Below, piece by piece: positions 1,445 to 52,800 of a stretch of DNA of 64,000 nt; the first letter of the stretch is position 1, and the number at the start of each line of letters is the position of its first letter. A program made the translations under genes and the position numbers. Source of the DNA: a virus; the IMG/VR virus record IMGVR_UViG_3300023491_000002; one strand, 5' to 3'. The notes below the pieces were generated by a model. The model was not told where the DNA came from and did no database searches. It worked only from the letters and a program-made list of their open reading frames with translations.

Positions 1445-4400
1445 ATGAATGGTAAATATGAGTTTTCACAAGATGCTATTGATAACTTTATGTTTATTCA
1501 TGCTTATTGGAAAAATAGTTGTGATGGCATCAATGCTGCTCCTGAGAATAAGTGGGGCTATAAACGTGGAGATATTCCTTTTATAGATTATCTCTGTGAA
1601 GATAAAAGTAAATATCCGAAAGCATCCGAGGGTATTAGTTATATTACTAATAAGCCTTTATATGATCCGGATAATGATTTTCTTATTGGTAACTCTGGTG
1701 GTATTCTTATGAATATTGATTTTATTGTTATTAATATAGAAAGACTTTCTAAAGCTGCTGATACTTTTGATGAATATGGTACGTATTGTGATTATGACCC
1801 TAGTACTCCGGCTTATGAATCATTTTGGCAAAGAGAAACATCTCGTCGTAAGAAAGGTGTTTTTATTAAAGCTAAACTTTATTATAAAGATATTCCTAAG
1901 TTCTTTGATGCTAATACTACTGATGAGGAACGTGAAAGTTTACTTCAACCTTTACGTATAACCGGTGCGCATTATACTTATCTTAATTATGGTCGTATTG
2001 AACGTACACCTAATGATAAAGAACGTGCAAGACTTAAACGTGAAGGTGCTGAACACGTTGAGACTGTTATGGGTTTTCCTCGTTATTGGGATGGTGACTA
2101 TTGGAACTTCAAAATAGATGAGTTTATTGCTAATAATAAGTTTCATCTTACTAAGGCTAAAGCCCGTCGTAAAGGTTTCTCATATAAACGTGGTAGTCAA
2201 GCTGCAAATACAATTAACTTATTTCCGAATGTTACGGTAACTCTTGCTGCTGACCAATTAGCTTATCTTACAGATAAAGGTGCTACTACGTTTATGGCTA
2301 AGAAATGTCTTGACCATTTTGAGGAACATACGTTTTGGAAAAGAGGTTACATTTCAGAAGCTATTGATGATATACTGATGGGTTATCGTGTATCAACTAA
2401 AGGTCTTAAAAACTTTGGTTGGCTTTCTAATCTTTATAGTGTTGCTATTGGTAAGAATGAATCTGCTGCTGTAGGTAAGAAAGCTATTGAGATTGACTTC
2501 GAGGAAGCTGGTAAGTGCTTTGCTAAAGGTACTAGATTTGTGATGTTTGACGGTTCTATTAAGAATGTTGAAGATATTATTATTGGTGATATTCTTATGG
2601 GACCTGATAGTAAACCTAGAACAGTTCTTGCTACTAAACAAGGTAGAGATGAAATGTTTAAGATTACTCCCGGAAATGGAGAATCTCATATTGTTAATAG
2701 TAAACATCCGATTCGTACTATATATCGAAAAGCTTATGGTAATATAGTTAGAGAAGAGTTAGTTACTGCTCCTGATTATATTAAAATGATTCAAGAACAT
2801 CCTCGTTGGAGAGAATGTTATGCTCTTGAAAAGACTGGCGTTGAATTTGAGCATAAAGATGTTCTTATTGATCCTTATATATTTGGTTTATGGATTGGTG
2901 ATGGTGCTTCAGATGATTCATATATTACAAATGAAGATCCTGAAGTTATTGAAACTATTTATAAATATGCAGAAGATCATAATCTTAGAATTACTATTAA
3001 AGATAATAAAAATAGTAAAGCTAAAGATTATAGATTTACTAGACTTGAAACTGAAACTAATAATTGGTTTAGACAAGAACTTAGTCGTTTAGGTGTTCTT
3101 AATAATAAATTTATACCTAAAGATTATATTGTTACAGATAGAAAATCTCGTTTAGAATTTCTTGCTGGTATTATTGATACGGATGGTTCATTTGATTCTC
3201 GTAAAGGTAATTTTGAGATAGCTCAAAAGAATCCTTATATTACTGCTGGTATTGTTTATATAGCTCGTAGTTGTGGTTTAAAAACTACAGTTACTGAAAG
3301 AGTTATTAAAGATACTATTTATTATCGTATAATGATATTAAGTAATGCTTGGGAGATTCCTACTAAAATAACTCGTAAACAATGTAAAGAATATACAACT
3401 TTACAAAAGAATCCTCTTGAATGCAGATTTGATGTTGAATCTATCGGTGTTGATGATTATTATGGTTTTGAAGTTGATGGTGATCAGTTATGTCTTTTAG
3501 AAGATTTTACTATTGTACATAATTGTCCTAATCTCCAAAAAGCTCTTGACGTTACTTTATCTAATACAGAATCTGGTGCTATATCTGTTGGTACTATTCG
3601 TATTTATGGTACGGGTGGTACTAAAGGTGCTAACTGGGCTGCATTTAGTAAAGCCTTTTATAATCCCAAAATGAATAAGATGCTTTGCATGGAAAACGTT
3701 TGGGATATTAATAAACGTCATGAAGTATGTGGTTTCTTCTTTCCACAAGTATGGGATTGTGAACCTTATGTTGAACGTGGTAATTCAATTATATTCACTG
3801 CTTATGCTTGGGATAAACAAGATAAAGAGAATCACTTTCATAATAATGATAGTGAAACTCATATAATCTATAAAGCCCAACGTGCTAATACTCCTGCCGA
3901 AGCGTTCATTAATACAACAGAGAATATGTTCGCTTCTCCTGAACTTAATCTACACGTTTCAGATTTAATTAATGATAATGCTACTAGATTCTTTCAAGAC
4001 GGTTGGATTGTTGTTAATGATTTAGGTAATTCTAATAAAGCTGAATTTATACCAAAAGCTGAATGTATTAAACGTGATATATTTGGTAAAGGTAGATTCC
4101 ATGAGTTTGTTAATCAAGTTCCGCATGGTTCTCGTGATGATACTCATGGTTGCGTTAGAATGTATTATCGTCCGTTCTTAGTAAATGGTGAAGTGCCTAA
4201 AGATTTATATTTTGTTAGTGTGGATGCGTATAAGGTAGATAAGGCTCAAAAAGACGTAACAGATAAACATTCTCTTTATTCTGCACAAGTATGGATGCGT
4301 AGTAATACTATTACTCCATATCCAAATCAAAAACTGCTTGTATGCGAATATATAGGGCGTTTGGACACAATGGAGCAAAATGATATAGTCACTATGGGTA

Positions 4401-4855
4401 TGTGTCTTATGTATAATGCTGAATGTTGTCCGGAAGCTGGTACTGGTGAGACTGTTTCTAACTTTATTAAATATAAACTTAGACGTTACTTAATGCTTGA
4501 CCCAACCAATGCCAATACTCGTAAATTGACTAATCCTAACAATAATGATTATGGTATTGTAATTGGTGATGGTGATAAGAAATATAATGGTCTTCGTATG
4601 CTAAAGGAGTTTATTTATGAACCTCTTTCATATACTGCTGATGGTAAACCTATTCGTAGACTTAAGTCTATTAGTAGTGTTCGATTGCTTCTAGAGTGTC
4701 AGAGATTTACTGCTGAGGGTAACTTCGACCATATTAGTGCTGCTATTGTTGCTATGTATGTCTTTCTTGCAGATTCTTTAAATACTAAGCGTCTTGTTGA
4801 AGGTAATACAGAGAATAATGACAGACGTATTGCAAATCGTTTAAATCGTCGTTAA
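1445..4855 (+). CDS. Intein-containing large protein, probably the large terminase subunit (TerL). It is about 800 aa after splicing.
   Basis: It lies directly upstream of the portal-like and capsid-like genes. The C-extein has RNase-H-like nuclease-type motifs: FVSVDAYK (Asp motif I-like) and a C-terminal FDHISAAIVAMY (motif III-like). Inteins are typical of phage TerL. I could not pick out a Walker A motif by eye. Confidence 0.5.
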   Translation: MNGKYEFSQDAIDNFMFIHAYWKNSCDGINAAPENKWGYKRGDIPFIDYLCEDKSKYPKASEGISYITNKPLYDPDNDFLIGNSGGILMNIDFIVINIERLSKAADTFDEYGTYCDYDPSTPAYESFWQRETSRRKKGVFIKAKLYYKDIPKFFDANTTDEERESLLQPLRITGAHYTYLNYGRIERTPNDKERARLKREGAEHVETVMGFPRYWDGDYWNFKIDEFIANNKFHLTKAKARRKGFSYKRGSQAANTINLFPNVTVTLAADQLAYLTDKGATTFMAKKCLDHFEEHTFWKRGYISEAIDDILMGYRVSTKGLKNFGWLSNLYSVAIGKNESAAVGKKAIEIDFEEAGKCFAKGTRFVMFDGSIKNVEDIIIGDILMGPDSKPRTVLATKQGRDEMFKITPGNGESHIVNSKHPIRTIYRKAYGNIVREELVTAPDYIKMIQEHPRWRECYALEKTGVEFEHKDVLIDPYIFGLWIGDGASDDSYITNEDPEVIETIYKYAEDHNLRITIKDNKNSKAKDYRFTRLETETNNWFRQELSRLGVLNNKFIPKDYIVTDRKSRLEFLAGIIDTDGSFDSRKGNFEIAQKNPYITAGIVYIARSCGLKTTVTERVIKDTIYYRIMILSNAWEIPTKITRKQCKEYTTLQKNPLECRFDVESIGVDDYYGFEVDGDQLCLLEDFTIVHNCPNLQKALDVTLSNTESGAISVGTIRIYGTGGTKGANWAAFSKAFYNPKMNKMLCMENVWDINKRHEVCGFFFPQVWDCEPYVERGNSIIFTAYAWDKQDKENHFHNNDSETHIIYKAQRANTPAEAFINTTENMFASPELNLHVSDLINDNATRFFQDGWIVVNDLGNSNKAEFIPKAECIKRDIFGKGRFHEFVNQVPHGSRDDTHGCVRMYYRPFLVNGEVPKDLYFVSVDAYKVDKAQKDVTDKHSLYSAQVWMRSNTITPYPNQKLLVCEYIGRLDTMEQNDIVTMGMCLMYNAECCPEAGTGETVSNFIKYKLRRYLMLDPTNANTRKLTNPNNNDYGIVIGDGDKKYNGLRMLKEFIYEPLSYTADGKPIRRLKSISSVRLLLECQRFTAEGNFDHISAAIVAMYVFLADSLNTKRLVEGNTENNDRRIANRLNRR
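2516..3523 (+). mobile_element. Intein of 336 aa with an embedded LAGLIDADG homing endonuclease.
   Basis: It starts with Cys1 (CFAKGTRFVMFDG, block A). LAGLIDADG motif 1 is LWIGDGASDDSY (about nt 2884-2910). Motif 2 is FLAGIIDTDGSF (about nt 3158-3193). It ends ...FTIVHN followed by the +1 Cys (CPNLQ), which is the canonical HN/C splice junction. The length is a multiple of 3 inside the host ORF. Confidence 0.85.
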
Positions 4856-13470: not shown

Positions 13471-13485
13471 AAACTTAATGCTATG

Positions 13486-16257
13486 GAATGTAATATTAAA
13501 ATTGTCAAGTTAAAACAAGTTCTTCCTCTTGGTACATTTCCTAAGCGTGAGCATAACGTTCGATTCTTCTATCATCGTACTGATGGTTGTTACTATATGT
13601 ATGATGAAAAAGGTTGCGAAATTAATCTAACTACTGATGGTAATATTATTGCTATTGATAGAGAGTTGATTGTTGGTAGTGAGTCTTTGACTGATGACGC
13701 TCTTGTTTGCATTGGTCTTAAAGCTAATTATGTGCATCCTAGTCGTGGTATTAGAAATAATACTTGTGGTTGTCAAGATACATATATTCGTGCTTGGACT
13801 TACATCAAAGATCTTCAAGATTTTATGCAGTCTGGTCATATCGAACGTGATTACTATAGAGTTACTTTAGTTCCTTCTCCTGAAGAGGGTGGTATTGTTG
13901 GATGTAGTGGTTCTGCTATTGTTCCTGATGAAAACTCAGATGGCTTCCGTTTCCAATTTGAAGCTGGTAGTCGTGTTGAACTTTATGCTAAACCTGTTCA
14001 AGGTTATCACTTTAAAGGTTGGAAAGAGTTCCATACTAATGAGATTATGTCTATTAGTCCTAATTGGTCTTTTACTATTAAGAAAGATATGGATTTGATA
14101 GGCGTATTTGAAAAGGATGAAGCTCCTATTGAACAATTCTATATTAATGTCAATGCTGATCCGGCTAATGCAGGATATGTAGTTGGTGCCGGAACATTCC
14201 CAAAAGGTACAAGGCATTCTATAACAGCTGCGGCAATTCAAGGGTATCATTTTACTCATTGGACTGATAGTTTAAATCGTATTGTTTCTACTAATCTTCA
14301 ATATGATCTTGTTGTTGAGAAAGATGAAACTTATACTGCACACTTCGAGCTTGATGCTCCTGTTATTGAGGAGTACAATGTAACTATTATAACTAATCCT
14401 GCTGATAAAGGTTCAGTTAGCGGTGGCGGTACTTATAAGTCCGGTCAAACTGCAATAATTGTTCCTAGTCCAGTTGAGGGTTGGGCTGTTGATACAGTTA
14501 CTGCTTCTGGTGGTAATCTTGTAGATAATGGTAATGGTACATATAGCATCGTTGTTACACGAGATCTTACGATTACGGTAAACTTTAAAGAAGCTATTCG
14601 TTATTTCACGTTTAGTATCGTGGCAGATGCGAATGGTTTAGTTCGATATAAAGATATTAATGATGCTTGGTCTCAATGGGCAGAAAGACACGAAGTCACT
14701 GCTCCGGAAAAGACTATTGTCACTATCGCTGGTAAAGCTAACGGCAGTTATGAATTTGAAAAGTGGGTAACGCCTACTGGTGCTAATCTTCCTAATAATG
14801 AAAACAATATCATTGTTGAAGAAGGTCTGCATCGCAAAGTTTATACTGCCTATTTCAAGGAAACTTACATTCCACCTGAAACTCATATTGTTAATATCAC
14901 TGCTGGTTCTAATGGTAAATGCAAATATAAGATTGGCTCTGGTGAATATTCAGAAGCTGCATCTTTGTATTCTAACATTAGTATTACTGACGGTGAGACA
15001 ATTGAAGTATTAGGTGTTCCCGATAGCGGTTATTCTTTTGAACAATGGAATATTGGTGGAACTACTTCTAACTCTAATCCTTATTCAAAGGTTATTACTG
15101 AAAATGTAGATTTCTCTTGTACGTTCGTAGAGATTCCACCGGAAGAAGTTACTATTACGGTAGGTTCTGATGGAACTAATGAAACTCGTTATCGTATAGG
15201 TGATGGTTCTTGGTCTAATTGGTCTACTTCCGAACATACGTTTAAAACTGCTGTAGGTTCGATTTATTTAGTTGAAGCTCGTGCGGTTGGTAACTACAAA
15301 TTTAGAGAGTGGAATACAAGCGGTGCAAAGGTTTCAGATAATCCTGCAACATTCACTGCTAAAACCGGAACAAATGCAACGCATATTGCTACGTTTGATC
15401 AAGTAATCATGCGAACGCTAACTCTTACTGCTGGAACGGGTGGTAAATGTCGTGCAAAGATCAATGGAAGTTGGAGCGACTATTATAGTGGCACAAAGAC
15501 TTACTCTGATATTGTTGACGGAACTACCGTTTCTGTAGAAGCATTAGCAGATAGCGGCTATCATTTTAAGGAATGGACTGATTCGGGTGCTCCCTCGATT
15601 ACTTCGCGTGATATTGTCATGAATGACTCTAAATCTATTGAAGCTCGTTTTGAGGTTGATGCTTCTGATAAATTCCAAGTCACCTATGAAGCTATTCCTA
15701 ACGGAAGTGCTACAATGGAAGGTGCTGGTACTTATGATGATGGTGATACTTGTACGATTAAAGTTAATGTAAGTCCGGGTTATACTTTGAATAAAGTGCT
15801 TGTTGATGGTGTTAAAATCACTCTTAACAGTAATAATCAGTATAGCTTTGTGGTTGAGAAAAACATTAAGGTTACTATTGAATGCGATCTTATTCCTGAA
15901 CCCACACATTATACACTTACAGTTAAAACTGAAGATGAAGGTGTAGTTCAAGGTGGTGTTGGTATCAATAAAGAATCTAATTTAGGAGTTGAAACTGCTG
16001 AATTTGAGGATGGTACTGTTGCTACTATTCATGCTACAGCTGCTGAAGGTTATAGCTTTGGTGGTTGGTGGAAAGATGGAGTTAAGGTTTCTGATGATGT
16101 AACTCTAAGTGTTACTGTTGATGCTAATAAGACTTATATTGCTAAGTTTACTCAAGATCCATATCTCGAATTAGATAAGACTTCTCTTATTTTCGAGGCT
16201 GCTGGTGGAACTCAAACTGTTAATGTTACTTCTAACGTCGAATGGACGGTTTCATAA
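13486..16257 (+). CDS. Fibre or receptor-binding-type protein. It has about 5 tandem Ig-like repeats with a G-Y-(H/S)-F-x-x-W signature, and ends with the N-terminal half of a BACON domain.
   Basis: Repeats GYHFKGW, GYHFTHW, GYSFEQW, GYHFKEW and GYSFGGW. The C-terminus is QDPYLELDKTSLIFEAAGGTQTVNVTSNVEWTVS. The ORF-track start at 13465 is a TTG, so ATG 13486 is preferred. Confidence 0.7.
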   Translation, partial: ECNIKIVKLKQVLPLGTFPKREHNVRFFYHRTDGCYYMYDEKGCEINLTTDGNIIAIDRELIVGSESLTDDALVCIGLKANYVHPSRGIRNNTCGCQDTYIRAWTYIKDLQDFMQSGHIERDYYRVTLVPSPEEGGIVGCSGSAIVPDENSDGFRFQFEAGSRVELYAKPVQGYHFKGWKEFHTNEIMSISPNWSFTIKKDMDLIGVFEKDEAPIEQFYINVNADPANAGYVVGAGTFPKGTRHSITAAAIQGYHFTHWTDSLNRIVSTNLQYDLVVEKDETYTAHFELDAPVIEEYNVTIITNPADKGSVSGGGTYKSGQTAIIVPSPVEGWAVDTVTASGGNLVDNGNGTYSIVVTRDLTITVNFKEAIRYFTFSIVADANGLVRYKDINDAWSQWAERHEVTAPEKTIVTIAGKANGSYEFEKWVTPTGANLPNNENNIIVEEGLHRKVYTAYFKETYIPPETHIVNITAGSNGKCKYKIGSGEYSEAASLYSNISITDGETIEVLGVPDSGYSFEQWNIGGTTSNSNPYSKVITENVDFSCTFVEIPPEEVTITVGSDGTNETRYRIGDGSWSNWSTSEHTFKTAVGSIYLVEARAVGNYKFREWNTSGAKVSDNPATFTAKTGTNATHIATFDQVIMRTLTLTAGTGGKCRAKINGSWSDYYSGTKTYSDIVDGTTVSVEALADSGYHFKEWTDSGAPSITSRDIVMNDSKSIEARFEVDASDKFQVTYEAIPNGSATMEGAGTYDDGDTCTIKVNVSPGYTLNKVLVDGVKITLNSNNQYSFVVEKNIKVTIECDLIPEPTHYTLTVKTEDEGVVQGGVGINKESNLGVETAEFEDGTVATIHATAAEGYSFGGWWKDGVKVSDDVTLSVTVDANKTYIAKFTQDPYLELDKTSLIFEAAGGTQTVNVTSNVEWTVS

Positions 16258-16276
16258 TTAGGGAGGGGGTACTAAG

Positions 16277-18625
16277 ATGGCTATTGCTTCTTGGCTTACC
16301 CCTGCCGCTAAGAGTGGTACGGGTAATAAAACGGTTGGTTTAACTGCAAGTAAGAATACCGGTGCAAGCAGAACAACTATTGTTACTGTTTCAGTCAGCG
16401 GTATTACGAAAACTATTAATTGTACTCAAACGGAAGCTGATAAGTTTACTATTAAGATTTCAGCTTTAACTACTAATAGTTCAGGAACTACTATTACAAA
16501 TGTTGGCGATTGTTCTATTGGTTCATCTGCTACAGGTGGAGTTAAAGAAGGAACTTATTATCGTGATACTAGTGTCACATTAACTGCTAAAGCTGCTCCA
16601 ACTGGGTATGATTTTGTTGGTTGGTATGAAGGTTCTAATCTTGTTTCTACAAGTCTTTCTTTTGCTGTTACTTTAACGGCTAATAGAACTCTTGTTGCTA
16701 AATATAAGATTAAGAGCTACACTGTTAATGCAACTTCTGAGGATACAAACAAAGGTACTGTAAGTCCTGCAGGTCAAACTGTAGAACACGGTGCTAATGC
16801 TACTGTAGTTGCAACTCCTAAGGCTGCTTATAATTTTGCTGGTTGGTACAATGGAACAACTAAAGTATCTAGCAATGCTTCATATACATTTGCTGTTACT
16901 GCCAATATCAGCTTAACTGCTAAGTTTACAATTAAGACTTTCACAACTACTACTGCTAATTCAACTGGTGGTACAGCGAGCGTTAATAAGTCTAGTGTAG
17001 AATACGGTGGTTCTGCTATTTGGACGGCTACTCCGAGTACTGGCTATAACTTTAGTAAGTGGTCTAATGGTTCTACAACTAATCCTCTGACAGTTTCTAA
17101 CATTACTGCCAATACTCATATTACTCCGGTATTTGTTCTCAAGTCATATACTGTAACTTGGAATCCTAATGGTGGTACTGTAGATCCTACGTCAACTACT
17201 AAGACTCATGGTTCTACTTTAGGCCCATTGCCTACTCCGACAAGAGCTGCTGATACCCAATACACTTATACATTTAAGGGTTGGTTTACAGCTGCAACAG
17301 GTGGTACTCAAGTATCTGCATCTACTATTGTAACAGGAAACGTTACTTATTATGTTCAGTGGACTGCTACTCCTAGAAGTTACACTGCAACATTCAATGG
17401 TAACGGTGGTGGTACTCCTAGCCCATCAACTATTACTAAAACGTATGGTTCAGAATTAGGTACTCTTCCGACTTGTTCTAGGACAGGTTATACATTCCTC
17501 GGTTGGTACACAGCGTCTAGTGGCGGTACGAAAATTTCATCTGCTACTAAGATAACTGGTACTGTTACCTATTATGCTCAATGGTCTATTAATAGTTATA
17601 CTTTAACCTATAATGTTAATGGTGGTAATGCAGTAAGTCCTGCTTCTAAGAAGGTTCAATATGGAAGTGCTTATGGTACTTTGCCGACGCCTACGAAGTC
17701 TTCTAATGCTGAATACACCTATGTATTCGCAGGTTGGTACACTGCTGCTAGTGGTGGAACGCAAGTTACTGCTAATACGACAATGGGGGCAAGTAATACT
17801 ACAATATATGCACATTGGACTGCAACTAGACGGAGTTATACAATAGGTTATCAAACAACATACGGGTCTTTGAATAGGGCTAGTCAATCTGTTGCTTATG
17901 GGTCGAAAGGCTCTTGTACGTTGACTATGCCTTCAAACGATGCTCAGTACACTTATACTTTCCAAGGTTGGTATACTGCTGCCAACGGTGGTGGAACTAA
18001 GGTTGGTTCTTCATTAACTTTAGAAACACCGAGTGTAACAGGTGCTGCTACTTATTATGCTTATGTGACCAGAGCTGTTAATAGGTACACCTTTACATTT
18101 AACGCTAATGGTGGTAGTACTCCTTCTTCTTCATCTATAACTAAAGATTATAATGAAGCTATTGGAACGTTACCTACTTGTTCAAGAGCTGCGGATAATA
18201 CTTATACGTATGCATTCGCAGGTTGGTTCGATACTGCTGCCGCTACTGGTGGTACTCAATTAACTACGACAACTAAGGTTACTTCTAATAAGACTTGGTA
18301 CGCTAGATGGACTATATCTACTAGACAGTATAAATTGACAGTTACTGCTGGTACAGGAGGTACAGTTAGTGGTGGAGGTACTTATAATTACAATGCGTCA
18401 GTTACACTAAAAGCTACAGCTAATTCTGGTTATCACTTTGTTAAATGGAGTGATGGTAATACAAATGCTACAAGGACAGTCACTGTAACTAAAGATGCTA
18501 CTTATACCGCTACATTTGAACAAGATCCTTATTTGAATCTTGATAAAACTAGTCTAACGTTTGAAGCTGCTGGTGGTACACAAACTATCAAAGTAACTTC
18601 TAATGTTAATTGGACTGTTTCTTAA
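16277..18625 (+). CDS. Fibre protein with Listeria-Bacteroides (Flg_new-type) repeats. The N-terminus is the C-terminal half of a BACON domain and the C-terminus is the N-terminal half of a BACON domain.
   Basis: The N-terminus is MAIASWLTPAAKSGTGNKTV...NTGASRTTIVTVSVSG...CTQ. There are about 7 repeats of ...T(Y/F)xF(K/A)GW(Y/F)TAAxGGTQV, for example YTYTFKGWFTAATGGTQV, GYTFLGWYTASSGGTKI and YTYVFAGWYTAASGGTQV. The C-terminus QDPYLNLDKTSLTFEAAGGTQTIKVTSNVNWTVS is nearly identical at the protein level, but not the DNA level, to the C-terminus of the preceding gene. Confidence 0.75.
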   Translation: MAIASWLTPAAKSGTGNKTVGLTASKNTGASRTTIVTVSVSGITKTINCTQTEADKFTIKISALTTNSSGTTITNVGDCSIGSSATGGVKEGTYYRDTSVTLTAKAAPTGYDFVGWYEGSNLVSTSLSFAVTLTANRTLVAKYKIKSYTVNATSEDTNKGTVSPAGQTVEHGANATVVATPKAAYNFAGWYNGTTKVSSNASYTFAVTANISLTAKFTIKTFTTTTANSTGGTASVNKSSVEYGGSAIWTATPSTGYNFSKWSNGSTTNPLTVSNITANTHITPVFVLKSYTVTWNPNGGTVDPTSTTKTHGSTLGPLPTPTRAADTQYTYTFKGWFTAATGGTQVSASTIVTGNVTYYVQWTATPRSYTATFNGNGGGTPSPSTITKTYGSELGTLPTCSRTGYTFLGWYTASSGGTKISSATKITGTVTYYAQWSINSYTLTYNVNGGNAVSPASKKVQYGSAYGTLPTPTKSSNAEYTYVFAGWYTAASGGTQVTANTTMGASNTTIYAHWTATRRSYTIGYQTTYGSLNRASQSVAYGSKGSCTLTMPSNDAQYTYTFQGWYTAANGGGTKVGSSLTLETPSVTGAATYYAYVTRAVNRYTFTFNANGGSTPSSSSITKDYNEAIGTLPTCSRAADNTYTYAFAGWFDTAAATGGTQLTTTTKVTSNKTWYARWTISTRQYKLTVTAGTGGTVSGGGTYNYNASVTLKATANSGYHFVKWSDGNTNATRTVTVTKDATYTATFEQDPYLNLDKTSLTFEAAGGTQTIKVTSNVNWTVS

Positions 18626-18635
18626 ACTTTTAAAT

Positions 18636-18703
18636 GTTCCGCTACGCTTTGCAGACCCCAGTAGGGGAATAGCTTGTGGGGCGTGCGGAACTTCAAACTT
18701 TTT
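18636..18703 (+). terminator. GC-rich conserved element, copy A, in forward orientation. It is enclosed by the inverted repeat GTTCCGCTACGC...GCGTGCGGAAC and followed by CTTTTTT, so it behaves like a terminator for the 782-aa gene.
   Basis: The core GCAGACCCCAGTAGGGGAATAGCTTGTGGGGCGTGCGGAAC lies at 18651-18691, with a T-run at 18698-18703, 11 nt after the stop at 18625. Confidence 0.55.
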
Positions 18704-18728
18704 TACGAATAATTAAATTATTACTGTT

Positions 18729-19412
18729 ATGGTTAAAGATTCTGCTTTGAATGAAAGAGCAACTGCTGTTGAAATTGGTGGTTTAGTTGATGGAGTTGGT
18801 GCACCTGTTATGCGCGCCGGATATGCTTTGAAAGCTAAACCGAGTTGGATCACTTTAAGTGCTGTTGAGGGAACTGGTAACTCTCAAGTAGATGTTACTG
18901 CTCCGGTTTATAAAGGTCGTAACGGGCGTTCTGGTTTGATTACCGTTGCTGTTGAAGATTTGACTGAAGACGTTACTTTGCAGCAGGAAGGTTCTACGAT
19001 TTGGGATGTTACTACTCAATCGTTGGCTTTCGTTAAAACCGGTGAAACTAAGAAGTTCACTGGTAATTCCAATTTAGCTTCTATCACGTTTGCTGTTGAT
19101 TCTGACGCTTCTTCTTGGTTGACTGCCGGTAAATTGGTCGTAAATAAGAAAGAATATAATTCTGGTGCTGAGATTGAAGGTGATCCGGGAGCAGATGATG
19201 TTTACGCTTTTGAAATTACGTTTACCGCTGCTGCTAACCCGACGATTAACACTCGTACCGGTAATATTATCGTAAATGGTCAGAAATACATTGTAACTCA
19301 AGCTGCTGGTGATGCTACTTTGACTGTATCTCCGACTGCATTGACTTTCGCTGCTGCGGGAGAAACTAAACAGATAACGATTACTACGAATACCGCTTGG
19401 ACTATTTCGTAA
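18729..19412 (+). CDS. BACON-domain protein, 227 aa, with layout: BACON C-terminal half, a full BACON-like unit, then BACON N-terminal half at the C-terminus.
   Basis: SWITLSAVEGTGNSQVDV...NGRSGLITVAV...VTLQQ near the N-terminus. Internal ...SSWLTAG...RTGNIIVNGQKYIVTQ. C-terminus TLTVSPTALTFAAAGETKQITITTNTAWTIS. Confidence 0.7.
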   Translation: MVKDSALNERATAVEIGGLVDGVGAPVMRAGYALKAKPSWITLSAVEGTGNSQVDVTAPVYKGRNGRSGLITVAVEDLTEDVTLQQEGSTIWDVTTQSLAFVKTGETKKFTGNSNLASITFAVDSDASSWLTAGKLVVNKKEYNSGAEIEGDPGADDVYAFEITFTAAANPTINTRTGNIIVNGQKYIVTQAAGDATLTVSPTALTFAAAGETKQITITTNTAWTIS

Positions 19413-19433
19413 GTCGTCTGTTAATTTGATTAT

Positions 19434-19472
19434 AGGTCTAATAGGTACTAATGTGCTTATTAGACCTTTTGT
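19434..19472 (+). terminator. Rho-independent terminator: AGGTCTAATA-N14-TATTAGACCT followed by TTTTG.
   Basis: A perfect 10-bp stem 22 nt after the stop at 19412, with a T-run. Confidence 0.6.
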
Positions 19473-19494
19473 TGTATATACAGATATTTAAACT

Positions 19495-22521: not shown

Positions 22522-22788
22522 ATGACTGTTATTTACGCAAGAACTAGTCTGCCATCAAGGTGTGGTAGAGGTTTCAAAAATCAAAAGAACGTTATTAGAG
22601 TTACTAACCGGTATACTAATGCTGGTCCGTGGCACGGGGTTGTTCCAGTTAAGAATCGTCCTATTATGATCATAGGTGGTTCTGATACTCCTGAACTTGA
22701 ATTGTCTACTAATCTTCTTAAATTTATCCCTAGAGGTGAAACTAAGGAGCTTGGTATTACTACTAATAAATCTTGGCGAATTGTTTAA
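22522..22788 (+). CDS. Small protein of 88 aa ending in a BACON-N-half-like segment.
   Basis: The C-terminus ELELSTNLLKFIPRGETKELGITTNKSWRIV resembles the ...TSNVxWTVS C-termini of the fibre genes. Confidence 0.45.
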   Translation: MTVIYARTSLPSRCGRGFKNQKNVIRVTNRYTNAGPWHGVVPVKNRPIMIIGGSDTPELELSTNLLKFIPRGETKELGITTNKSWRIV

Positions 22789-32301: not shown

Positions 32302-35244
32302 ATGGCAATTAGATTAAAATATGCAGATCTTACATATGTTTCAATACCTGATGCAAAACAATTAGATTTAAGTTCTTTGCGTTCTTTTGGACAAGCTTTT
32401 ACAGCTACTGCTGATAATCTGCAAGAACGTGCTATTCGTAATGAAAACGCATATAATGAAATGGCTATTAAGATGTCTGAATATAATGCGATTCAAGGTG
32501 CAGATGAAGAAGCTCTTGCAGGTAAAATTAATGAAACTCAAGAACACATTAAAGTTAAAGTTGATGAAGATGGAGGATGGTTCTTTGCTGATACAGCTGT
32601 TAGCGATGGTGCTCGTAGATTTTTAACTGATGAAGGAGTTAAAACTATTCTTGGTAATAAAACTCAATTTGATGCTATGATGCAAGCTAATGAACAATCT
32701 GACGCTTCAGAAGAATATAAAGCATTAAATAGAGCTATGATTCTTAAACGGTTTAATGATGCAGGAGGTAGTTTAGGAGGTAATGGTAAACAATCTATTA
32801 GTTCTTTTGGTACAGCTCTTGGTTCAGGTCATGATAGAGAAGCTTTACGTAAAGAAATGCTTGAATACTTTAAAGCTATGAAATCTGATGAAAAAGTTAT
32901 TTATAGTGAACAATTCCGTAAACAAGCTATAGATTTAATGAATAATCCTACAATTGATGCTGTTACTAAATCTACTCTAAAAACTTTATCTAATCCTACT
33001 CTTCATGGATTTCAAAGTTTTACTAAAACTATCGAAGGTATAGGAGATGATAGATTAATAAATGTTGCTAAAGCCATTGTATCTAACAATAGTAAATTTA
33101 AAAATGCTTTATTAAAAGAAGCAGAATTAAATCTATTTGCTCTAGAACAAAAAGGTATTACACCTAGTAATGCTGTAAAAGACAATATATATTCTACAGC
33201 TTTTACTGATTCTAATATTTTAAAAACTTTAGTAATAAATTCTCCTGAATATAAAAATGCTAATAGTAATGAAAAGATTGTATTGCTTAATGCTATAAAC
33301 AATCCTAATAGTATTTATATAAAAGAATTAATAGATAGAAATTATAGCTTTTTAAATCAAAATCCTAATGAAACTGAATCTGATTATGAAGCTAGATTAT
33401 CTAATTTTTATAAAGCTAATTATATAGATTCTGAAATATCTAATGTGGCTACTTATTTATTGCCTATGAGATATACTAAAGAGAAACTTGATGTAGATAA
33501 TAAATTCTTTGAAAGTCTATTTAATAAGCAACTAGAAAAGTCTGAAGATACTTCTAAAATACTTACTAGAGAAAGAGATGGTTTAGTTGGAACAATAGTT
33601 AATCTTCCTAGTATGACTTCTGAACTAGAAGCAAATCGTAAAACAAGATTACTTAATCAAACTTCTCAACATTCAAGAAATATATCTGAATTAGAAAGAT
33701 TTAATAACTATTTAGCTAAAAAGTCTACTAATGGAGAAAATATAACTAAAGAAGATGAAGATAAATTAAAAGCTCTTAACCTTAGAGTTCAAGAATCTCA
33801 AAGTATAATCAATAACATTCTTTCTGAATATGATGCTTATAAAGGTGGTATTCCAACAAATAAAGAAGATAAAGCAAATTTAAGCTTAGCACTTCAAAAG
33901 AGTATTAAAGAATATTATGATGTATTTAATCGTGTTGGAATTTTTGGAAGTTTAACTAATGTTATCAATGAAGAAACTTCTAACTTAGATGAAAATGGAA
34001 ATCCTATTAAAGGTACAGGCGTTGATCTTAGAGATGATGTTAAATTTAATGCAAATGATAAAACTCAGAAACATATAGATGAATATCTTCATATAAAAGA
34101 TATAAGTTATATATTAAGTAATTCAGATACTCCAGAGGAAGGTATTAAAAAAGCCACAAAGTTTATAAAAAATAGTAGCAAAACTAATCCTTATGTAAAA
34201 GAGTTTGCAGATAATATATCTAAAACATTTGGGGATATTAGTACTGGATTAACTTCTATTCTAATGGGTAATCTGATTGAAAACTATGGTAATGAAACTA
34301 ATATGATTCAGTCTAATCCTGGAGTTGTTATTGGTATATCCAAACCTACAGAAACAGGTATTGTAAGTACTGTTAGAAATAATATAGCTTATAAAATTGA
34401 AAATCATCCTGAAGCATTTACTATTATTGATAATCAATTGTTAGATGATGATGATTTAGAGTTAGATGCTGAATCCGTTGGTGTTCCTATAGATTTGAAT
34501 AATGAATCTCTTAGGAAATTCTTATATACTGAAGATAAAGGTACAGATAAGAACCCTAAATATTCTAAATCAGATATTACTTATGAACTTATGGAATTGA
34601 GTGATGGTCGTAAAGCACTTAATCTTATAAAGAATGTTCAAGGTTTTAATAATGTTAGACAGAAACTCACTATTGTTGCGAATAATGATGCTGATCAGAA
34701 TACTATAGATGAATTTGAATTAGCTATGCGTATGACTTCTGCATTCGATATGGCTGATAGACCTAATGCTGATACAAAATTTATATTTGATGCTATGTCT
34801 ACACATCATGGTGGAAGTTTAACTTTTGGTCCAGATCCTTCCAATGCTATTCAAATGAATGATGCTTCTGCATATAATATTGTTGAATATAATGGAAGAT
34901 ATTATAATAATGTTAAGTCGTTATTAAATGCTTTTGTTAAAAATCCTATAACAAATGTAGATAAAACTATATATCATAATAATTTTAGAATTACATTTAG
35001 TAAAGATTCAAATAATAATTTTACTACTCAAATTGATACGTATGATAGTACAACAAATTCATTTGAGCTTACAGATAAATTTATAAGTGATAATTCTGAA
35101 GACTTTATTAATAATACACAACGTAGATTAAGCGTTATATCATCTATATTAGATTATAAAGATGCTTATAGATTAACTAAAGAACAATTAGATAATCTTA
35201 CTAAGTTTAATGCTAATATGTCTACAGCTAATTTTAATTATTGA
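32302..35244 (+). CDS. Large hypothetical virion protein of 980 aa, Asn/Lys-rich.
   Basis: Long ORF in the tail/ejection block. Confidence 0.65.
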   Translation: MAIRLKYADLTYVSIPDAKQLDLSSLRSFGQAFTATADNLQERAIRNENAYNEMAIKMSEYNAIQGADEEALAGKINETQEHIKVKVDEDGGWFFADTAVSDGARRFLTDEGVKTILGNKTQFDAMMQANEQSDASEEYKALNRAMILKRFNDAGGSLGGNGKQSISSFGTALGSGHDREALRKEMLEYFKAMKSDEKVIYSEQFRKQAIDLMNNPTIDAVTKSTLKTLSNPTLHGFQSFTKTIEGIGDDRLINVAKAIVSNNSKFKNALLKEAELNLFALEQKGITPSNAVKDNIYSTAFTDSNILKTLVINSPEYKNANSNEKIVLLNAINNPNSIYIKELIDRNYSFLNQNPNETESDYEARLSNFYKANYIDSEISNVATYLLPMRYTKEKLDVDNKFFESLFNKQLEKSEDTSKILTRERDGLVGTIVNLPSMTSELEANRKTRLLNQTSQHSRNISELERFNNYLAKKSTNGENITKEDEDKLKALNLRVQESQSIINNILSEYDAYKGGIPTNKEDKANLSLALQKSIKEYYDVFNRVGIFGSLTNVINEETSNLDENGNPIKGTGVDLRDDVKFNANDKTQKHIDEYLHIKDISYILSNSDTPEEGIKKATKFIKNSSKTNPYVKEFADNISKTFGDISTGLTSILMGNLIENYGNETNMIQSNPGVVIGISKPTETGIVSTVRNNIAYKIENHPEAFTIIDNQLLDDDDLELDAESVGVPIDLNNESLRKFLYTEDKGTDKNPKYSKSDITYELMELSDGRKALNLIKNVQGFNNVRQKLTIVANNDADQNTIDEFELAMRMTSAFDMADRPNADTKFIFDAMSTHHGGSLTFGPDPSNAIQMNDASAYNIVEYNGRYYNNVKSLLNAFVKNPITNVDKTIYHNNFRITFSKDSNNNFTTQIDTYDSTTNSFELTDKFISDNSEDFINNTQRRLSVISSILDYKDAYRLTKEQLDNLTKFNANMSTANFNY

Positions 35245-35248
35245 TATT

Positions 35249-38200
35249 ATGCCTATTGATTTTGATAAATTAGAAAGCATACAAAGAAAATCTACTTATG
35301 CCCCTAAAGATAAGTATAAAAGATCTTCTTTTAATCCTAATGCTTATAGTATAGATAATAAATTACTACTCAATTTAAGAAAACATTCTGGAAATAGTCA
35401 AAATATAGTTCCCGGTAATGTTAATGCTTATATTGAAGCTAGAGCTAGAAATCAATCTACTTGGGATCGTATTGGTAACTCTCTTGTTCAAACTGTTGGA
35501 GAAATAATTGGTGGTACAATTGAAAGTGCAGGTTCTATACTTGCACTTCCCTCTAAACTCATAGATAGTGATGAAGCTTATACTCGTAATTTTTTAGAAA
35601 GACTAGGTAATTCCATTAATGAAGGTACTAGAGAAGCATTTCCTATTTATATGACTGAACAAGCTCAAACGGGTAATTTATTAGATCGCATGAAAGGTGG
35701 TGGTTATTGGGCTTCAATAGTTCCATCTATTTTAGGTAGTGCTGCTAGTATAATGCTTCCAGCTCGTGGAGCTTCGTTATTATTAGGTAAAGCTTTTAGA
35801 AGTGCTGTTAATCTAGGAAGTAAATCTAAATATATTAAAGATTTATTTAAGTTGGGTACAAAACTACAAAAAGCTAAAGCTCTAAACAGAGCTAATAAAA
35901 TAGCAGATATTTATGGTTCTGCTGTTATAGGACGTATTCTAGATTCATCTCGTGAAGCTTATGGTACTTATGAACAAGAACGTGAATGGTTTCTTAATAA
36001 TTATAAGAACTATGTTGAACGTGATGAAAATGGTAATGCTATTCTTAAAGCTCCGGGATTAGAAGAAGTTCCTCTAAATGATACTAATATTGAAAGTATT
36101 GCTGATAGATATGCAGATAATGCAGCTTCTAAAGGTTATTGGAGATCTATGTCTAATATAGCTTATGACGTAGTTGAATGGATGAATATCTTAGGTACTG
36201 CTAAAACTCTTACTAAAGCTACTAGAGATAACATTCGTAAAGCTATGGCAACTGGTGATAAATTTGCTATAGTTCGTACATTAAATGCTATACCCAATGC
36301 TGATAAAGGTCAAATTCTTAGAGCTATTGGAGGTTTCGCTGGAGGTTCTCTTGCTGAAATGGCAGATGAAATGACTATGAGTATTGCGATGCAAGAAGGT
36401 ACTCATGCAGCTCGTAAAGATTTTGGTTTACTTTCTGATACTGACGCTCTTACTGATTTTAGCATGAGAGTTAGTAGTTATCTTAAAGATCCTGATATTT
36501 GGACTGAAGGTATTGGAGGTCTTTTAGGTGGTGCTGGTATGCAAGCAATAATGCCATTTATTGAAACTAAGATCAATAAACGTGGTATTGAAAGAGAACA
36601 TGAATATCTTAAAGGTATTGAACGTGCTACAGAAGCTATGCGTTCAGGTCTTGATGGTATTGTTGAATCTCTTGCAGAAGGTGATATTGTTGGTGCTAAA
36701 CTGAAAGAACAAGAAGCTATTCTTAATCAAGTTGCAGCTAATAGTCTTGATGGTTCACTTGAGTTCTATAAAGAGATGCTTAGAAATATGAGTGCTTCTC
36801 TTAAAGAAATTCAATCTATTAAATATAGAAAAGATAGAGGTGAAGCTATTAGTGCCGAAGAACAAATTGCACTTGATAAAGGTGAATCTTTACTTGCAAA
36901 TGCTGATTACTTTGAACAGACTCTTAATAAGATTGAAGCTGTTGAAGATATTTACAATAAACATTTCGATGCAGTCAATGGCACTACCGACAAAAATCTC
37001 TATGAATATCAACGTCGTATTGCTACTCTTGAAGCTCAAAAAAGACTTAATGAACTAGAACTCGAAGCTATTACAGCTAATCCTGCTGAATATCAAAAGC
37101 GTGCTGCTGAATCTAAAGAGTATCTTAGTAATTATGTTGATTCTAAATATACAGACGATAATATTCGTATAGCTAAGAAAGCTGATATAAATACTTATGC
37201 TGAAAATAATGCAACTCTTGAAGATGCTAAAGCTGCATTAAGTGTTTACGATAAAATGATTGCTAGTCTTAAGAAACAAATAAGTGAACTTGAAAATGCA
37301 ATCACTAATGCTCCTAAAGATGCTACTGCTGAACAATTATTAGGTCTTAAAATAGCTCTTAAAGGTGCTAATAGTAAACTTGAATCTTACAATAAAACTC
37401 TTAGTGATATTAGTAATATTCGAGATACAGCGACTAAAAACATTGAAGCTCTTAATTTAAATAAAGATGATAAAGAGGCGGCTCAACAAGCTAGAACTCT
37501 TTTATCTAATCTTACTAATCCGGAAGAAGCTAAACGATTCTATGAAAATAGAAGAACTGCTATTGATGCTGAACTTGATTATTATCGTAATGGTAATGGA
37601 TTTGAAGATATTAAAGATCAAATAAAATTATATGAAGATGAAATCAAAGCTTCTACTGATAAAGATCTAACTGATGAACTTAATACGTATCAAACTTCTG
37701 AAGCTTTACAAGCAGATGAATCAAAGTTCTCTAATTCAGACACAAGAAAAGCCGTATATAATGCCCGTCTTGCTAGACTGCAAAAACAAGAATCTGACAC
37801 TAAAGCTGCTAATGCTCGTAGAGAAGCTGCACTCAAAGCAGAACAAGAACGTCAAGTGAGACAACAAAAAGAACGTGATGCGCTTGCAACAGAAGAAGAT
37901 TCAAATGCTGCACCGATAGGTAGTGGTACATTCGGTAGATCTTATAGAGAATTTGAAGGTGTTAAACCTTTATCCAATGAAGCTTCTAGTCTCTATAATG
38001 CACTTATGTCTGAATCTCAAGTTACAGATTCACCTCTTGCTAACGTTATTGAGAATAGACGTAAAAGCAAATCTCTTACTTCTAAAGATGCAATGCTTCT
38101 TGAAGAAATTAAAGAATTCAATGATGCTACTAATAGAGCTTTAGATAATTCATTTGATACTCTTACGACTACAAATCTTAAATGGATTGTTACTCGTATT

Positions 38201-49800: not shown

Positions 49801-52800
49801 TATTCCTATTAGACTTAATTTCAGTGATATTAAAGGTTATAGTGAAGATATTCCTAATAAAGCTGAATGGGCTAGAAAGCAGATTCTTAAATGCTTTAAA
49901 GATGAAAGATTATCTAATGGTGAACATAGTGTTCAAGTAGATGTAGCTTCTAATAGCGTTACAGTTTGGTGTCGTTCTCTTTATAATAATGATTATGGTA
50001 CTTGGACTGATATAAATGGTGAGCCTATATCTGCACAGCGTTCTGAATTAACATCTCATATTCTTGATGCTGTTAAAGATAATCTTTGGTTTAATATGAA
50101 TACATATACTATTGGTAATACCGCTTTACTTGCTTCATTCCCCATAAGTTGGAATGCTAATCTTAAAGCTAGCAATGCTAAAGTTGAAGGTACTAATAGA
50201 TATATTTATTCTGCTCTTATTGAATCTCAGCAAATCATTACTGATTTTGTTACGAATATTTCAATTAAGTCTATTGAAAACTCTAATAACTTCACTAATG
50301 TTAGTTTCCATAATGTACGCAGTGATTATATGATTGACGCTGTTGCTACTATGAGTAAACTTCTTACTGATAAAGGTAATAGTCTTAAAGCTTTTGCTAA
50401 GAGTTATTTTGAAACTACACAAGATAATGTAGGTCTTAAAGATGTTATTACTAAACTTAGTAAATATCTTGCACAAGAAGATCTTAGTAATATGGCGATT
50501 GCGAAAGCTCACGAACATGGTCATACAATAAACATGAAACAAACTCATGCTATGGCTAGATTTATTGAAGCTCTTGCAAATGAAGTTGGTGTTACTGCAT
50601 ACGAAGTAGATAGTAAGATTCAGAATAAAGCTAAAACTATTACTGAACTTGATTCTCTATTTAAAGAAGATCAAAACTATAAACATACAGTTGAAGATTT
50701 TGAAGCTTATGCTAATTATCTTAATCGACAACTTGAAGTTTTAGATTACTATATGTACGTTGATAAAGCTGTAAATGCTATGAAACGTGCACAAGGATGT
50801 CTTATTACTGAAAAGAAAGGTGCTGGTCCTAAGACTTCTGAAAGTAATAAGCTCTTTGAATCTATTGCAATGCTTGAGCATAATGTTAATACTCTTATTC
50901 AGAATGCTAAAGATGCAGGTATTCCTGAAAGTATGCGCAATGAATTACTCTATAAATACTATAGTGTAAATGCAATTACTGATAAAGGTGAAGTCATTGA
51001 TAATTGGTTGCTTAAAGCTAATGATTATCTTCTTGAAAATAAGGATTCTGATGGTAAAGTAATTCAGCTTGATAAACCTAAATCCCCTTTTAGAATTGGT
51101 GATAAATCAATGATTGAAGCTATATTTCCGTCAATTGTTAATACTAATTGGGAAATTGAAGATAGTGCTTATCCTATTCTTCAACAACAATTGTATTCTA
51201 CTAATGAGATCTCTGTTAATATGTTTCATGATCTCTTCATTAGTGAGAATCCTGCTTTCAAAGATAAAATTAATTATTGTATGGCTAAGCTTAAACAGAT
51301 TAATAATCCTGAACTTAGAGAAGCTCTGATTAATTATGCTATTATTGATAAAGTTAGACAAATGCCTTTCTTTAATGATGACAGTAAAAGTCCGGAAACA
51401 CTTCTTGCTGAACGTGCTAAGTTATTAGGATGTGTTAATATTGTTAAAGACGAACAAACTAATGAATTTAAATTCAAAGGTGCTGTTGATTTAGCTCTTA
51501 CTAATGTTAATCTTAAAAATTGGTACAATGAACTTGAAAGTAGAAATTATACTCATGATGAAAAAATAGCTATGTTTAAAGAATTACCTGTTAGTATTCA
51601 ATTAGCTATGGTTAAGAATACACTTACTGATGGTAGATATGTTACTGTAAATGGTCAATATGTTACTAAAGGTAATCTTAGACTTAATCCTAATCATATT
51701 CTTTCATTGCTTTCTCCTAATACTATGGAGAGTACAATTGTAAGAACTGGATATATTTCTATTTCAACTAAGGAAAGTGATGATATTGATTTTACTAGAG
51801 ACACATTCTTTCAGCTTATTAATAGTCCTGATGAATATTGTCGTATTCTTGGTGAGAACTTAGTTAAATATGCATTCTGGGTTAATAAACTTGATTTTGG
51901 TCGTAATCTTTCTAAGTATATTCCTATTGATCTTTATGGTAAATTCAAAACTAAAGATGGTAACTATGTAAGTGCTTATAAGACTTCATGGGGAGATCAA
52001 TTTGATTCTATTAGTTTTGAATCTATCGACGGTACTAGTGACAGAGATATTAGATTAGCTATGAAAGAACAAGGTATTACTGATGGTGGTAGTAACTTCC
52101 GTTCAGAAAATGCTGCTCTTTATAACTATGCTGAAGCTCTTTATGCTAGTCAAGCGAATAAAGATAATATTCTTCTTAGAACTAACGAAGAACTTGATGT
52201 TTTTATCGAAGCTTTTGTTCGTGCTAATTCTGAGAATACTCGTATCGTTAAATATATGAAACCTGAATATGTTTATGATACTAATTGTAAGAAGAGTAAA
52301 GTTAAAGATCAAACTCCAACTTTTACTAAGATTACTAAGAGTAATTTCTCTAGAGCTGTATTTGATCTTAAAGGTGCAGTAGCTAACGAATGGCATAAAG
52401 ATGTTGATCTTGAAACTCGTAAGTATATAGAAGATGCTCTTAATAGTGTTATTAAAAATGCTATTGGTATTAAACATAATGATATTTGGAACATCGTTGG
52501 TCAAATGATCTTTGAACCTACTAGATATGTAAATAATTCTAGTTATGCTGATGATGTATATCTTAAGACTCGTGAAAAGGTAATTGATAAAGAACTTACT
52601 GGTCTTAAAAAGACTTACAAAGCTCAATTACCTGAGGGTATGCTTTATAAACGTTTTGATATTAATGATTGTACGTTCTATTATCCTATTAATAAAACGT
52701 TTAAATCTGAATATCTTACTACAGCTAATGATTATTATAAATATAACATTGAAGCTCAAGAAATATACGAGAAACTTGCTACTATTTTGAGTAAGTTCTA

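Follow-up and report, generated by a model that had tools for sequence, protein, structure and literature searches.

A BACON domain, an Ig-like β-sandwich, is divided across the boundaries of consecutive fibre genes in a 64,000-nt stretch of virus DNA (IMG/VR virus record IMGVR_UViG_3300023491_000002; hereafter the window, of which the fibre region, positions 13,486–19,412, is shown). One gene ends with the first part of the domain (N-half), the next begins with the remainder (C-half), and the two are parts of one BACON domain. The reading that we favour, with moderate confidence, is that non-covalent fold complementation between these halves builds a segmented, modular fibre. The open reading frame (ORF) at 8822–10306 matches the Crassvirus major capsid protein family (PF23898, Crass_capsid), which places the window in a crAss-like phage, and fibre genes 1–3 sit three genes past it. 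In a Pfam scan these genes consist mostly of Listeria-Bacteroides repeats (Flg_new, Flg_new_2), which marks them as virion fibre proteins, of the head or of the tail. No phages are more abundant in the human gut than crassviruses, and a conserved split-domain joint, if real, would explain how their separately encoded fibre proteins are connected.

Half-domains at the gene ends

The fibre locus is composed of three genes, five terminal half-domains and one complete domain, with structured gaps between and behind the genes. Scores are from Pfam models, hidden Markov models (HMMs) of each half, and AlphaFold2 (predicted local distance difference test, pLDDT).

13483..16257, + strand: fibre gene 1, 924 aa from its ATG; ~130-aa N-terminal region without a recognised domain, presumed to be the virion anchor, then Flg_new_2 repeats and a C-terminal BACON N-half only
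16159..16254, + strand: BACON N-half at the gene 1 C-terminus, residues 893–924; N-half HMM 18.4 bits, model positions 1–32 to the last residue, TAA directly after
16258..16276, + strand: 19-nt gene 1–gene 2 spacer with GGGAGGGGG, a G-rich Shine-Dalgarno (SD)-like element
16277..18625, + strand: fibre gene 2, 782 aa; N-terminal C-half, ~13 Flg_new/Flg_new_2 repeats, C-terminal N-half
16280..16429, + strand: BACON C-half at the gene 2 N-terminus, residues 2–51; PF13004 33.4 bits, PF19190 positions 41–92, C-half HMM 26.4 bits
18527..18622, + strand: BACON N-half at the gene 2 C-terminus, residues 751–782; N-half HMM 24.8 bits, the match ending on the last residue
18636..18691, + strand: stem-loop in the gene 2–gene 3 gap; ΔG -30.1 kcal/mol, z -3.2, T-run a few bases downstream
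18729..19412, + strand: fibre gene 3, 227 aa; 35-aa extension predicted to be disordered, C-half, complete BACON-like domain with a GDPGA insert, N-half
18834..18992, + strand: BACON C-half of gene 3, residues 36–88; PF19190 positions 35–93, C-half HMM 36.7 bits
18993..19307, + strand: complete internal BACON-like domain of gene 3, residues 89–193; PF13004 match at residues 123–192, nine strands in the AlphaFold2 model with pLDDT >95
19314..19409, + strand: BACON N-half at the gene 3 C-terminus, residues 196–227; N-half HMM 28.3 bits
19434..19467, + strand: intrinsic-terminator-like hairpin past gene 3; 15-bp stem followed by a T-run, z -6.8

The C-termini of all three gene products correspond to the first ~32 residues of the BACON β-sandwich, and the N-termini of genes 2 and 3 to the remaining ~50. 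Gene 1 ends '...LDKTSLIFEAAGGTQTVNVTSNVEWTVS'; gene 2 starts 19 nt downstream with 'MAIASWLTPAAKSGTGNKTV...' and ends '...LDKTSLTFEAAGGTQTIKVTSNVNWTVS'; gene 3 carries 'KPSWITLSAVEGTGNSQ...' past its 35-residue extension and ends '...ALTFAAAGETKQITITTNTAWTIS'. The half-domain HMMs, trained on distant relatives (30–40% identical), were run on the six-frame, ATG-start ORFs of at least 50 aa in the window. The N-half model matches only residues 893–924 of gene 1, 751–782 of gene 2 and 196–227 of gene 3, every match ending on the last residue, and the C-half model matches only residues 2–51 of gene 2 and 36–81 of gene 3. An initial annotation of this DNA had described a BACON domain split across consecutive fibre genes; the HMMs, the PF19190 positions and the termini, which are as described, bear this out, including a C-half near the start and an N-half at the end of the 227-aa gene (36.7 and 28.3 bits). 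It had also given gene 1 a length of 930 aa and a C-terminal N-half, of which the half-domain stands and the length probably does not: the start is most likely ATG 13483 ('MECNIK', common to all relatives; 924 aa), not TTG 13465.

The position of the cut is defined by two Pfam models of different extent, BACON_2 (PF19190, 94 positions) and PF13004 (61 positions, cut-off 25 bits). The BACON core (W, N, R, Q) exceeds the Pfam gathering score at the gene 2 N-terminus (PF13004, 33.4 bits) and in gene 3 (PF13004, 44.8 bits; PF19190, 41.8 bits). Gene 3 residues 32–88 align to PF19190 positions 35–93 and gene 2 residues 4–52 to positions 41–92, and a chimera of the gene 2 C-terminus with the gene 3 N-terminus spans positions 2–93 (E 8.7e-11). 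The terminal copies cover positions ~2–34 or 35–93, the whole ~90-residue sandwich being present in one polypeptide only as the gene 3 internal domain. In the BACON domain of BoGH5A (3ZMR), residues 14–39 align to the C-terminal piece of the module family described below, and the adjacent residues 42–92 to its N-terminal piece. In the gene 3 model the intact internal domain has nine strands, the first four (A, A', B, C) corresponding to the N-half and the other five to the C-half. The concern that each terminus might be a complete domain behind an offset Pfam boundary, named in the initial annotation as a refutation, is real for PF13004, which covers essentially the C-half alone and makes it look like a whole domain; it fails on PF19190, 3ZMR and the gene 3 model. 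Half-domains escape annotation that relies on the short PF13004 model.

Genes 1 and 2 have N-halves that agree at 28 of 33 residues; for 15 of these 28 the codons differ (nucleotide identity 73%). Protein identity combined with codon divergence indicates purifying selection on both N-halves, in agreement with the earlier claim that they are nearly identical, diverged at synonymous sites and selected. The 35-residue N-terminal extension of gene 3 (18729–18833, '..ERATAVEIGGLVDGVGAPVMRAGYALKA') is conserved in the lineage, predicted to be disordered and absent from the ~200-aa family below; it would emerge exactly at the proposed joint.

The small ORF downstream, also proposed earlier to end with an N-half, resembles one at pattern level only:

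22522..22788, + strand: small ORF, not counted in the system; N-half HMM 1.2 bits, no Pfam match

Persistence of the split in relatives

Close relatives were collected with the neighbouring 325-aa gene as anchor, giving 33 IMG/VR loci in two clades (anchor identity 97–99% and 87–89%). All three stops and starts are kept in 31/31 close relatives covering the region. The comparison of orthologous loci called for by the initial annotation finds the split retained in every one of these, with fused versions rare.

The gene 1–gene 2 spacer in relatives consists of 'TTA', a G-rich run of variable length and 'TAC TAAG', 16–21 nt in total, and the frame relation between the two genes is therefore not conserved. 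A TAG in the window spacer blocks the gene 2 frame, so a simple -1 or +1 frameshift cannot join gene 1 to gene 2, as first stated; the accompanying claim of a stop in every frame of the 19-nt gap holds for the gene 1 and gene 2 frames, the third being open. Genes 2 and 3 are separated by 103 nt with stops in all frames and a stable stem-loop. The variable gap, the stops and the hairpins therefore exclude programmed frameshifting and read-through and indicate separate translation.

Recoding, in which frameshift, read-through or ribosomal bypassing would fuse the genes into one polypeptide, was among the earlier explanations and is now very improbable. The gene 1–gene 2 gap does hold an unusual G-rich element, SD-like elements aid the T4 gene 60 bypass, and Ser codons lie before the gene 1 stop and, five codons in, inside gene 2. 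The W..W loop left by a TCA-to-TCT hop would, however, be shorter than in any intact domain. Close relatives differ in gap length and frame relation and always keep the TAA; the gaps of distant homologues show no sequence relationship and span anything from an overlap to ~100 nt; and 119 of the 120 distant homologues listed keep the ATG ('MA..') at one position of the domain, stop and start being conserved over thousands of homologues. With no conserved frame relation between the ORFs, recoding is rejected. A sequencing or assembly artefact, or the recent pseudogenisation of one long fibre gene, has almost no probability left: error-prone homopolymer G runs do lie at or near two junctions, but the stops are TAA codons, not frameshifts, and the same stops and starts recur in 31 independent close assemblies, 80 further loci and thousands of protein clusters, a recurrence that contradicts this explanation. 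Protein trans-splicing by a split intein is likewise rejected, as a Pfam scan detected neither Hint or intein matches nor halves of them in genes 1–3; the sole intein of the window lies in the putative terminase gene.

The G-rich run before gene 2 (window 16261–16269; relatives L001–L031 at ~13820–14093) is hypervariable, being either an unbroken stretch of 6–10 G or stretches of G in which a single A intervenes. Of 25 gene starts in the window, none but that of gene 2 has an SD-like element before it, the phage being AT-rich and Bacteroidota-type; the run may be a contingency tract adjusting gene 2 translation. G runs of at least 6 occur in relatives almost only here and inside the C-half of the tip gene described below. 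The stem-loop past gene 2 (18636–18691), a possible attenuator or terminator, is largely conserved in sequence among relatives, the second clade having a distinct version; in the terminator-like hairpin past gene 3, base changes on both arms preserve the stem. Together the hairpins could set decreasing expression along the chain.

Several variants of the locus were observed among close relatives. In L001, L008, L025 and protein P0002 the gene 3 frame is open upstream to an ATG overlapping the gene 2 end, giving a 269-aa ORF through the hairpin; in the window a TAA closes this extension four codons short of the ATG. Gene lengths differ even between near-identical phages (922–1014 aa for gene 1, 782–1016 aa for gene 2), presumably because Flg_new repeats are gained and lost. 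Some phages are recombinant, L013 and L023 for example having a gene 2 tail and gene 3 head from the other clade.

Searching gene 3 against 1.84 billion representative proteins revealed a family of ~200 aa, residues 2–201 of which match gene 3 residues 36–227 at 35–40% identity; a profile of the family, which is 30–40% identical to gene 3, finds >3,000 proteins of 198–217 aa. In 119 of the 120 members listed, Trp first occurs at residue 6 ('MAKxxW') and the last Trp is followed by exactly three more residues before the stop ('Wxxx'); W-3-5-W spacing is the same across the cut as in uncut domains. At 80 further IMG/VR phage loci, representing 18 distinct lineages, the module is flanked by an upstream gene whose product has an N-half-like C-terminal tail ('...SN.DW.I') and a downstream gene whose product opens with a BACON second half ('M..PW.DG.GD...'; PF13004 positions 4–61 in two of the four tested). 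Taking all loci together, 185 of 187 N-half matches end within five residues of the stop, 155 of them exactly at it. The deposited crassvirus cr111_1 (Steigviridae) has the same trio, gp003, gp004 and gp005, with gp004 annotated as 'lipocalin-like protein, BACON binding domain'. An N-half stop beside a C-half start is found in the window, its 31 close relatives, the 18 lineages, cr111_1 and L035. W-to-F changes and C-terminal tail extensions appear in both N-half-bearing proteins of a lineage at once, a pattern that both pairing schemes predict.

Naturally fused versions identify the two halves as pieces of one domain. A profile of upstream tail, module and downstream head, expected to rank fused proteins first, gave among its best 120 matches 116 stand-alone modules (201–209 aa), the equally stand-alone P0450 (227 aa, with an internal duplication) and three fused proteins: P0386 and P0387 (module-module) and P0388, a singleton upstream-module read-through. 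The gene 3 search added P0184 (module-module) and P0231 (module-downstream). In each fusion the junction is a normal contiguous BACON domain with the W-3-5-W spacing kept, so that upstream N-half and downstream C-half together make up a single domain. One stop-loss would suffice to fuse the genes, yet fusions are rare; the separated state is therefore under selection. The gene 3 search also matched ordinary bacterial tandem BACON lipoproteins, gene 3 aligning in shifted register to the contiguous arrays; this alignment, the equal W-3-5-W spacing and the existence of rare fused versions uphold gene fission, the first of the initially proposed explanations, as the origin of the split.

In many relatives, gene 3 and its hairpin are followed by a gene of ~190 aa, the tip gene, that starts directly with a C-half ('MAKPSWISVSPASGTNNGSFDV...'; 'MAKPSWISVSP..'; BACON_2 positions 42–93). 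At least four types share this C-half and differ in their distal parts, with at least four unrelated distal domains behind it. Both presence and type of the cassette vary (window 19413–19494 versus L016, L018, L021–L023, L029, L031, L007 and L027); in the window and about nine relatives the gene is missing, a precise 82-nt gap (19413–19494 in the window) taking its place. By C-half HMM, no other window ORF of at least 50 aa starts with a C-half that could partner the gene 3 N-half. A poly-G run (6–10 G) encodes the 'GGG' turn of the tip C-half (L003, L005, L013, L017, L020, L027, L028, at ~17300–18150) and has no window counterpart; the tip reading frame breaks exactly at this run in about seven of the 16 tip-carrying loci, which suggests on/off phase variation or a homopolymer assembly error. 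The overall pattern is anchor–N-half, C-half–rod–N-half, C-half–BACON–N-half and C-half–tip.

Fold complementation as a candidate joint

In the proposed mechanism, separate fibre proteins would be joined by a split BACON domain reconstituted at each joint, the C-terminal ~32 residues of one protein (strands A, A', B and C) pairing with the N-terminal ~50 of the next (the other five strands). The product would be a linear chain of gene 1 anchor, gene 2 rod, gene 3 adaptor and, in relatives, the tip. Gene 1 would be bound to the virion by its N-terminus and all other proteins would be tied to it only through such joints; distal parts could then be swapped as cassettes, exchangeable tips keeping the connector. 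The distribution of halves fits the chain, gene 1 having an N-half only, genes 2 and 3 both halves and the tip a C-half only. The halves of gene 2 lie ~700 residues of repeats apart, and gene 1 and the tip each carry a single half; at least these halves must find their complement in trans or stay incomplete. Trans-complementation, already listed in the initial annotation, is the best-supported functional reading, given the half pattern, gene order, cut site, exchangeable tips and natural fusions; that halves of different proteins dock in the virion, and which half pairs with which, we infer.

Several observations weigh against this reading. Genes 2 and 3 each bear both halves, which makes self-closure or homopolymerisation possible. 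The gene 3 N-half is unpaired in the window and the ~9 relatives without a tip gene, and loci L034 and L107 leave one half without a visible partner. The gene 1 and gene 2 N-halves are 85% identical and their partner C-halves, by eye, much more divergent, which leaves pairing specificity unexplained. Mean-field direct-coupling analysis (DCA) of 249 family members (effective number of sequences, Meff, 71) retrieves the internal-domain ladders B:E and A':G; for the terminal halves, where its power is too low, it yields a few high-ranking pairs between them (74-227, 55-213, 84-207) and no significant enrichment overall. The AlphaFold2 monomer of gene 3, built on a deep alignment, reaches pLDDT 86 and a predicted template modelling score (pTM) of 0.70, with residues 38–227 above 90 and residues 1–32 below 50; this pTM could equally reflect the protein's own two ends docked together.

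The last point leads to circular permutation by self-closure, in which gene 3-type modules would fold their own N-half and C-half into one domain and pairing in trans would be limited to single-half proteins (gene 1, the tip and, in other lineages, the small proteins encoded upstream and downstream). We regard this as unlikely overall, although it is a live rival for gene 3, if not for gene 2 or the single-half proteins. The module family is indeed a circular permutation of two BACON domains in sequence, the linkers on both sides of the internal domain are short, both ends of the monomer are confidently predicted, and the few top DCA pairs that link them lie at positions homologous to real internal-domain contacts. 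The overall DCA map correlation is insignificant (r 0.05, rank 11 of 169), however, and DSSP assigns the terminal halves of the model only A:B and F:G ladders, explicable within a half, and very short C' and E strands; the long B and E strands of the internal domain, and the long B:E and C:F ladders of a closed domain, are missing there. This suggests, as far as the model goes, that the terminal halves are in an open, partner-awaiting state. The model also superposes sequentially, over 177–189 columns, on longer phage proteins. Self-closure is implausible for gene 2, with its ~700 aa of repeats between the halves, and for P0231 and P0184; it would leave a closed module without visible virion attachment, and it offers no reason for the constant placement of the module gene, with an N-half stop before it and a C-half start after it.

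Somewhat less probable still is a historical fission without complementation, the halves being leftovers or independent β-meanders that serve oligomerisation or chaperone recognition, with other association surfaces or none. The partnerless halves in window gene 3, L034 and L107 and the treatment of the C-half by PF13004 as a domain in its own right are compatible with it. It sits poorly with the conservation of both halves and of the exact cut site at 30–40% identity in >3,000 proteins, with the purifying selection on the N-halves, and with tips that conserve the C-half while the rest varies. As four and five strands of one nine-strand domain, free halves would also be unlikely to be stable.

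Complementation could extend further, to a pilus-like polymer, which we consider a speculative and rather improbable variant. Because the gene 1 and gene 2 N-halves are kept nearly identical, both may dock the gene 2 C-half; in that case gene 2 subunits would add head-to-tail to the gene 1 anchor, forming a polymer that gene 3 closes off and equips with a socket for alternative tips. The poly-G run before gene 2, the hairpin attenuators past genes 2 and 3 and the tip poly-G run would adjust fibre length and tip identity, the last switching the tip on and off by frameshift. If true, the split BACON domain would be a universal plug-and-socket connector with which gut crassviruses rebuild their receptor-binding apparatus.

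Related assemblies and phage context

In donor-strand complementation and exchange (chaperone-usher pili) and in the strand exchange of Bacteroidia type V pili, an incomplete Ig-like fold is completed by the neighbouring subunit. The split-BACON fibre would share with these systems an incomplete Ig-like fold at subunit ends, anchor, rod, adaptor and tip parts, and a non-covalent head-to-tail fibre, with completion here proposed. It differs in the share of the domain donated, about a third to half (four of nine strands) versus one strand in pili, in the absence of a chaperone or usher family among the neighbouring genes scanned with Pfam, in an assembly that would be cytoplasmic, on the virion, and in partners that are encoded by adjacent genes cut from one domain. 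By this comparison it would be an analogue of the donor-strand principle, not a member of that family. Adaptor-based receptor-binding complexes (T4 gp34-37; the CBA120 and G7C tailspike adaptors) likewise join several separately encoded fibre proteins in defined order with exchangeable distal parts; to our knowledge, their joints rely on trimeric interfaces or whole folded domains rather than on paired halves of a single small one. SpyTag/SpyCatcher (split CnaB2) and split GFP, which are engineered, also start from a β-rich domain cut in a loop into two fragments that reassemble, as is proposed here; the Spy pair forms an isopeptide bond, whereas the present system is natural and nothing in it suggests a covalent bond.

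The present domains share family, fold and W...N...R...Q core with contiguous BACON domains (PF13004/PF19190; BoGH5A, 3ZMR) and with the tandem crAss-BACON arrays (de Jonge et al. 2019, PMC6949934), the latter being similarly linked to virion-appendage genes of crAss-like phages. An ordinary BACON domain lies within one polypeptide, whereas here the polypeptide ends and restarts in the W..W loop. De Jonge et al. relied on PF13004 and on a derived crAss-BACON profile, still shorter at the N-terminus, and reported 'single-domain' ORFs; a text search of that paper (PMC6949934) found nothing on split or truncated domains, boundaries or stop codons. In the structural atlas of PhicrAss001 the fibres are unresolved beyond the gp22 N-terminus (PMC10172136), and they are the least resolved part of the only atomic model of a crassvirus virion. 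A full-text literature search on strand or fold complementation and split domains in phage fibres returned nothing relevant, half-domain joining of phage fibre proteins not being described there; its nearest known parallel is donor-strand complementation in pili. If true, the half-domain joint would explain the many ~200-aa 'single BACON domain' ORFs and a cassette-like tip exchange that alters host range, and would supply engineering with split Ig-like connectors that are natural and form an orthogonal set.

This phage is highly abundant: a single gene 3 cluster at 90% identity comprises 9,627 member sequences, on contigs of ~94–97 kb. A megablast of the fibre locus against INPHARED gave no match and hence no close relative in this deposited phage collection, no cultured crassvirus in the collection carries the module, and a PHROGs search assigned no family to the fibre genes. 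A tRNA scan of the window detected none. The 1136-aa ORF at 1445–4855 contains an intein with a LAGLIDADG homing endonuclease (Hom_end_hint, residues 358–411; Hom_end, residues 561–620) and is probably the large terminase, judging by its length and by the portal-sized gene (795 aa) that follows it, an arrangement shared with cr111_1. Further downstream lie two giant ORFs, at 35210–43843 (2877 aa) and 43862–57112 (4416 aa), which we take to be typical of crassvirus virion-packaged proteins.

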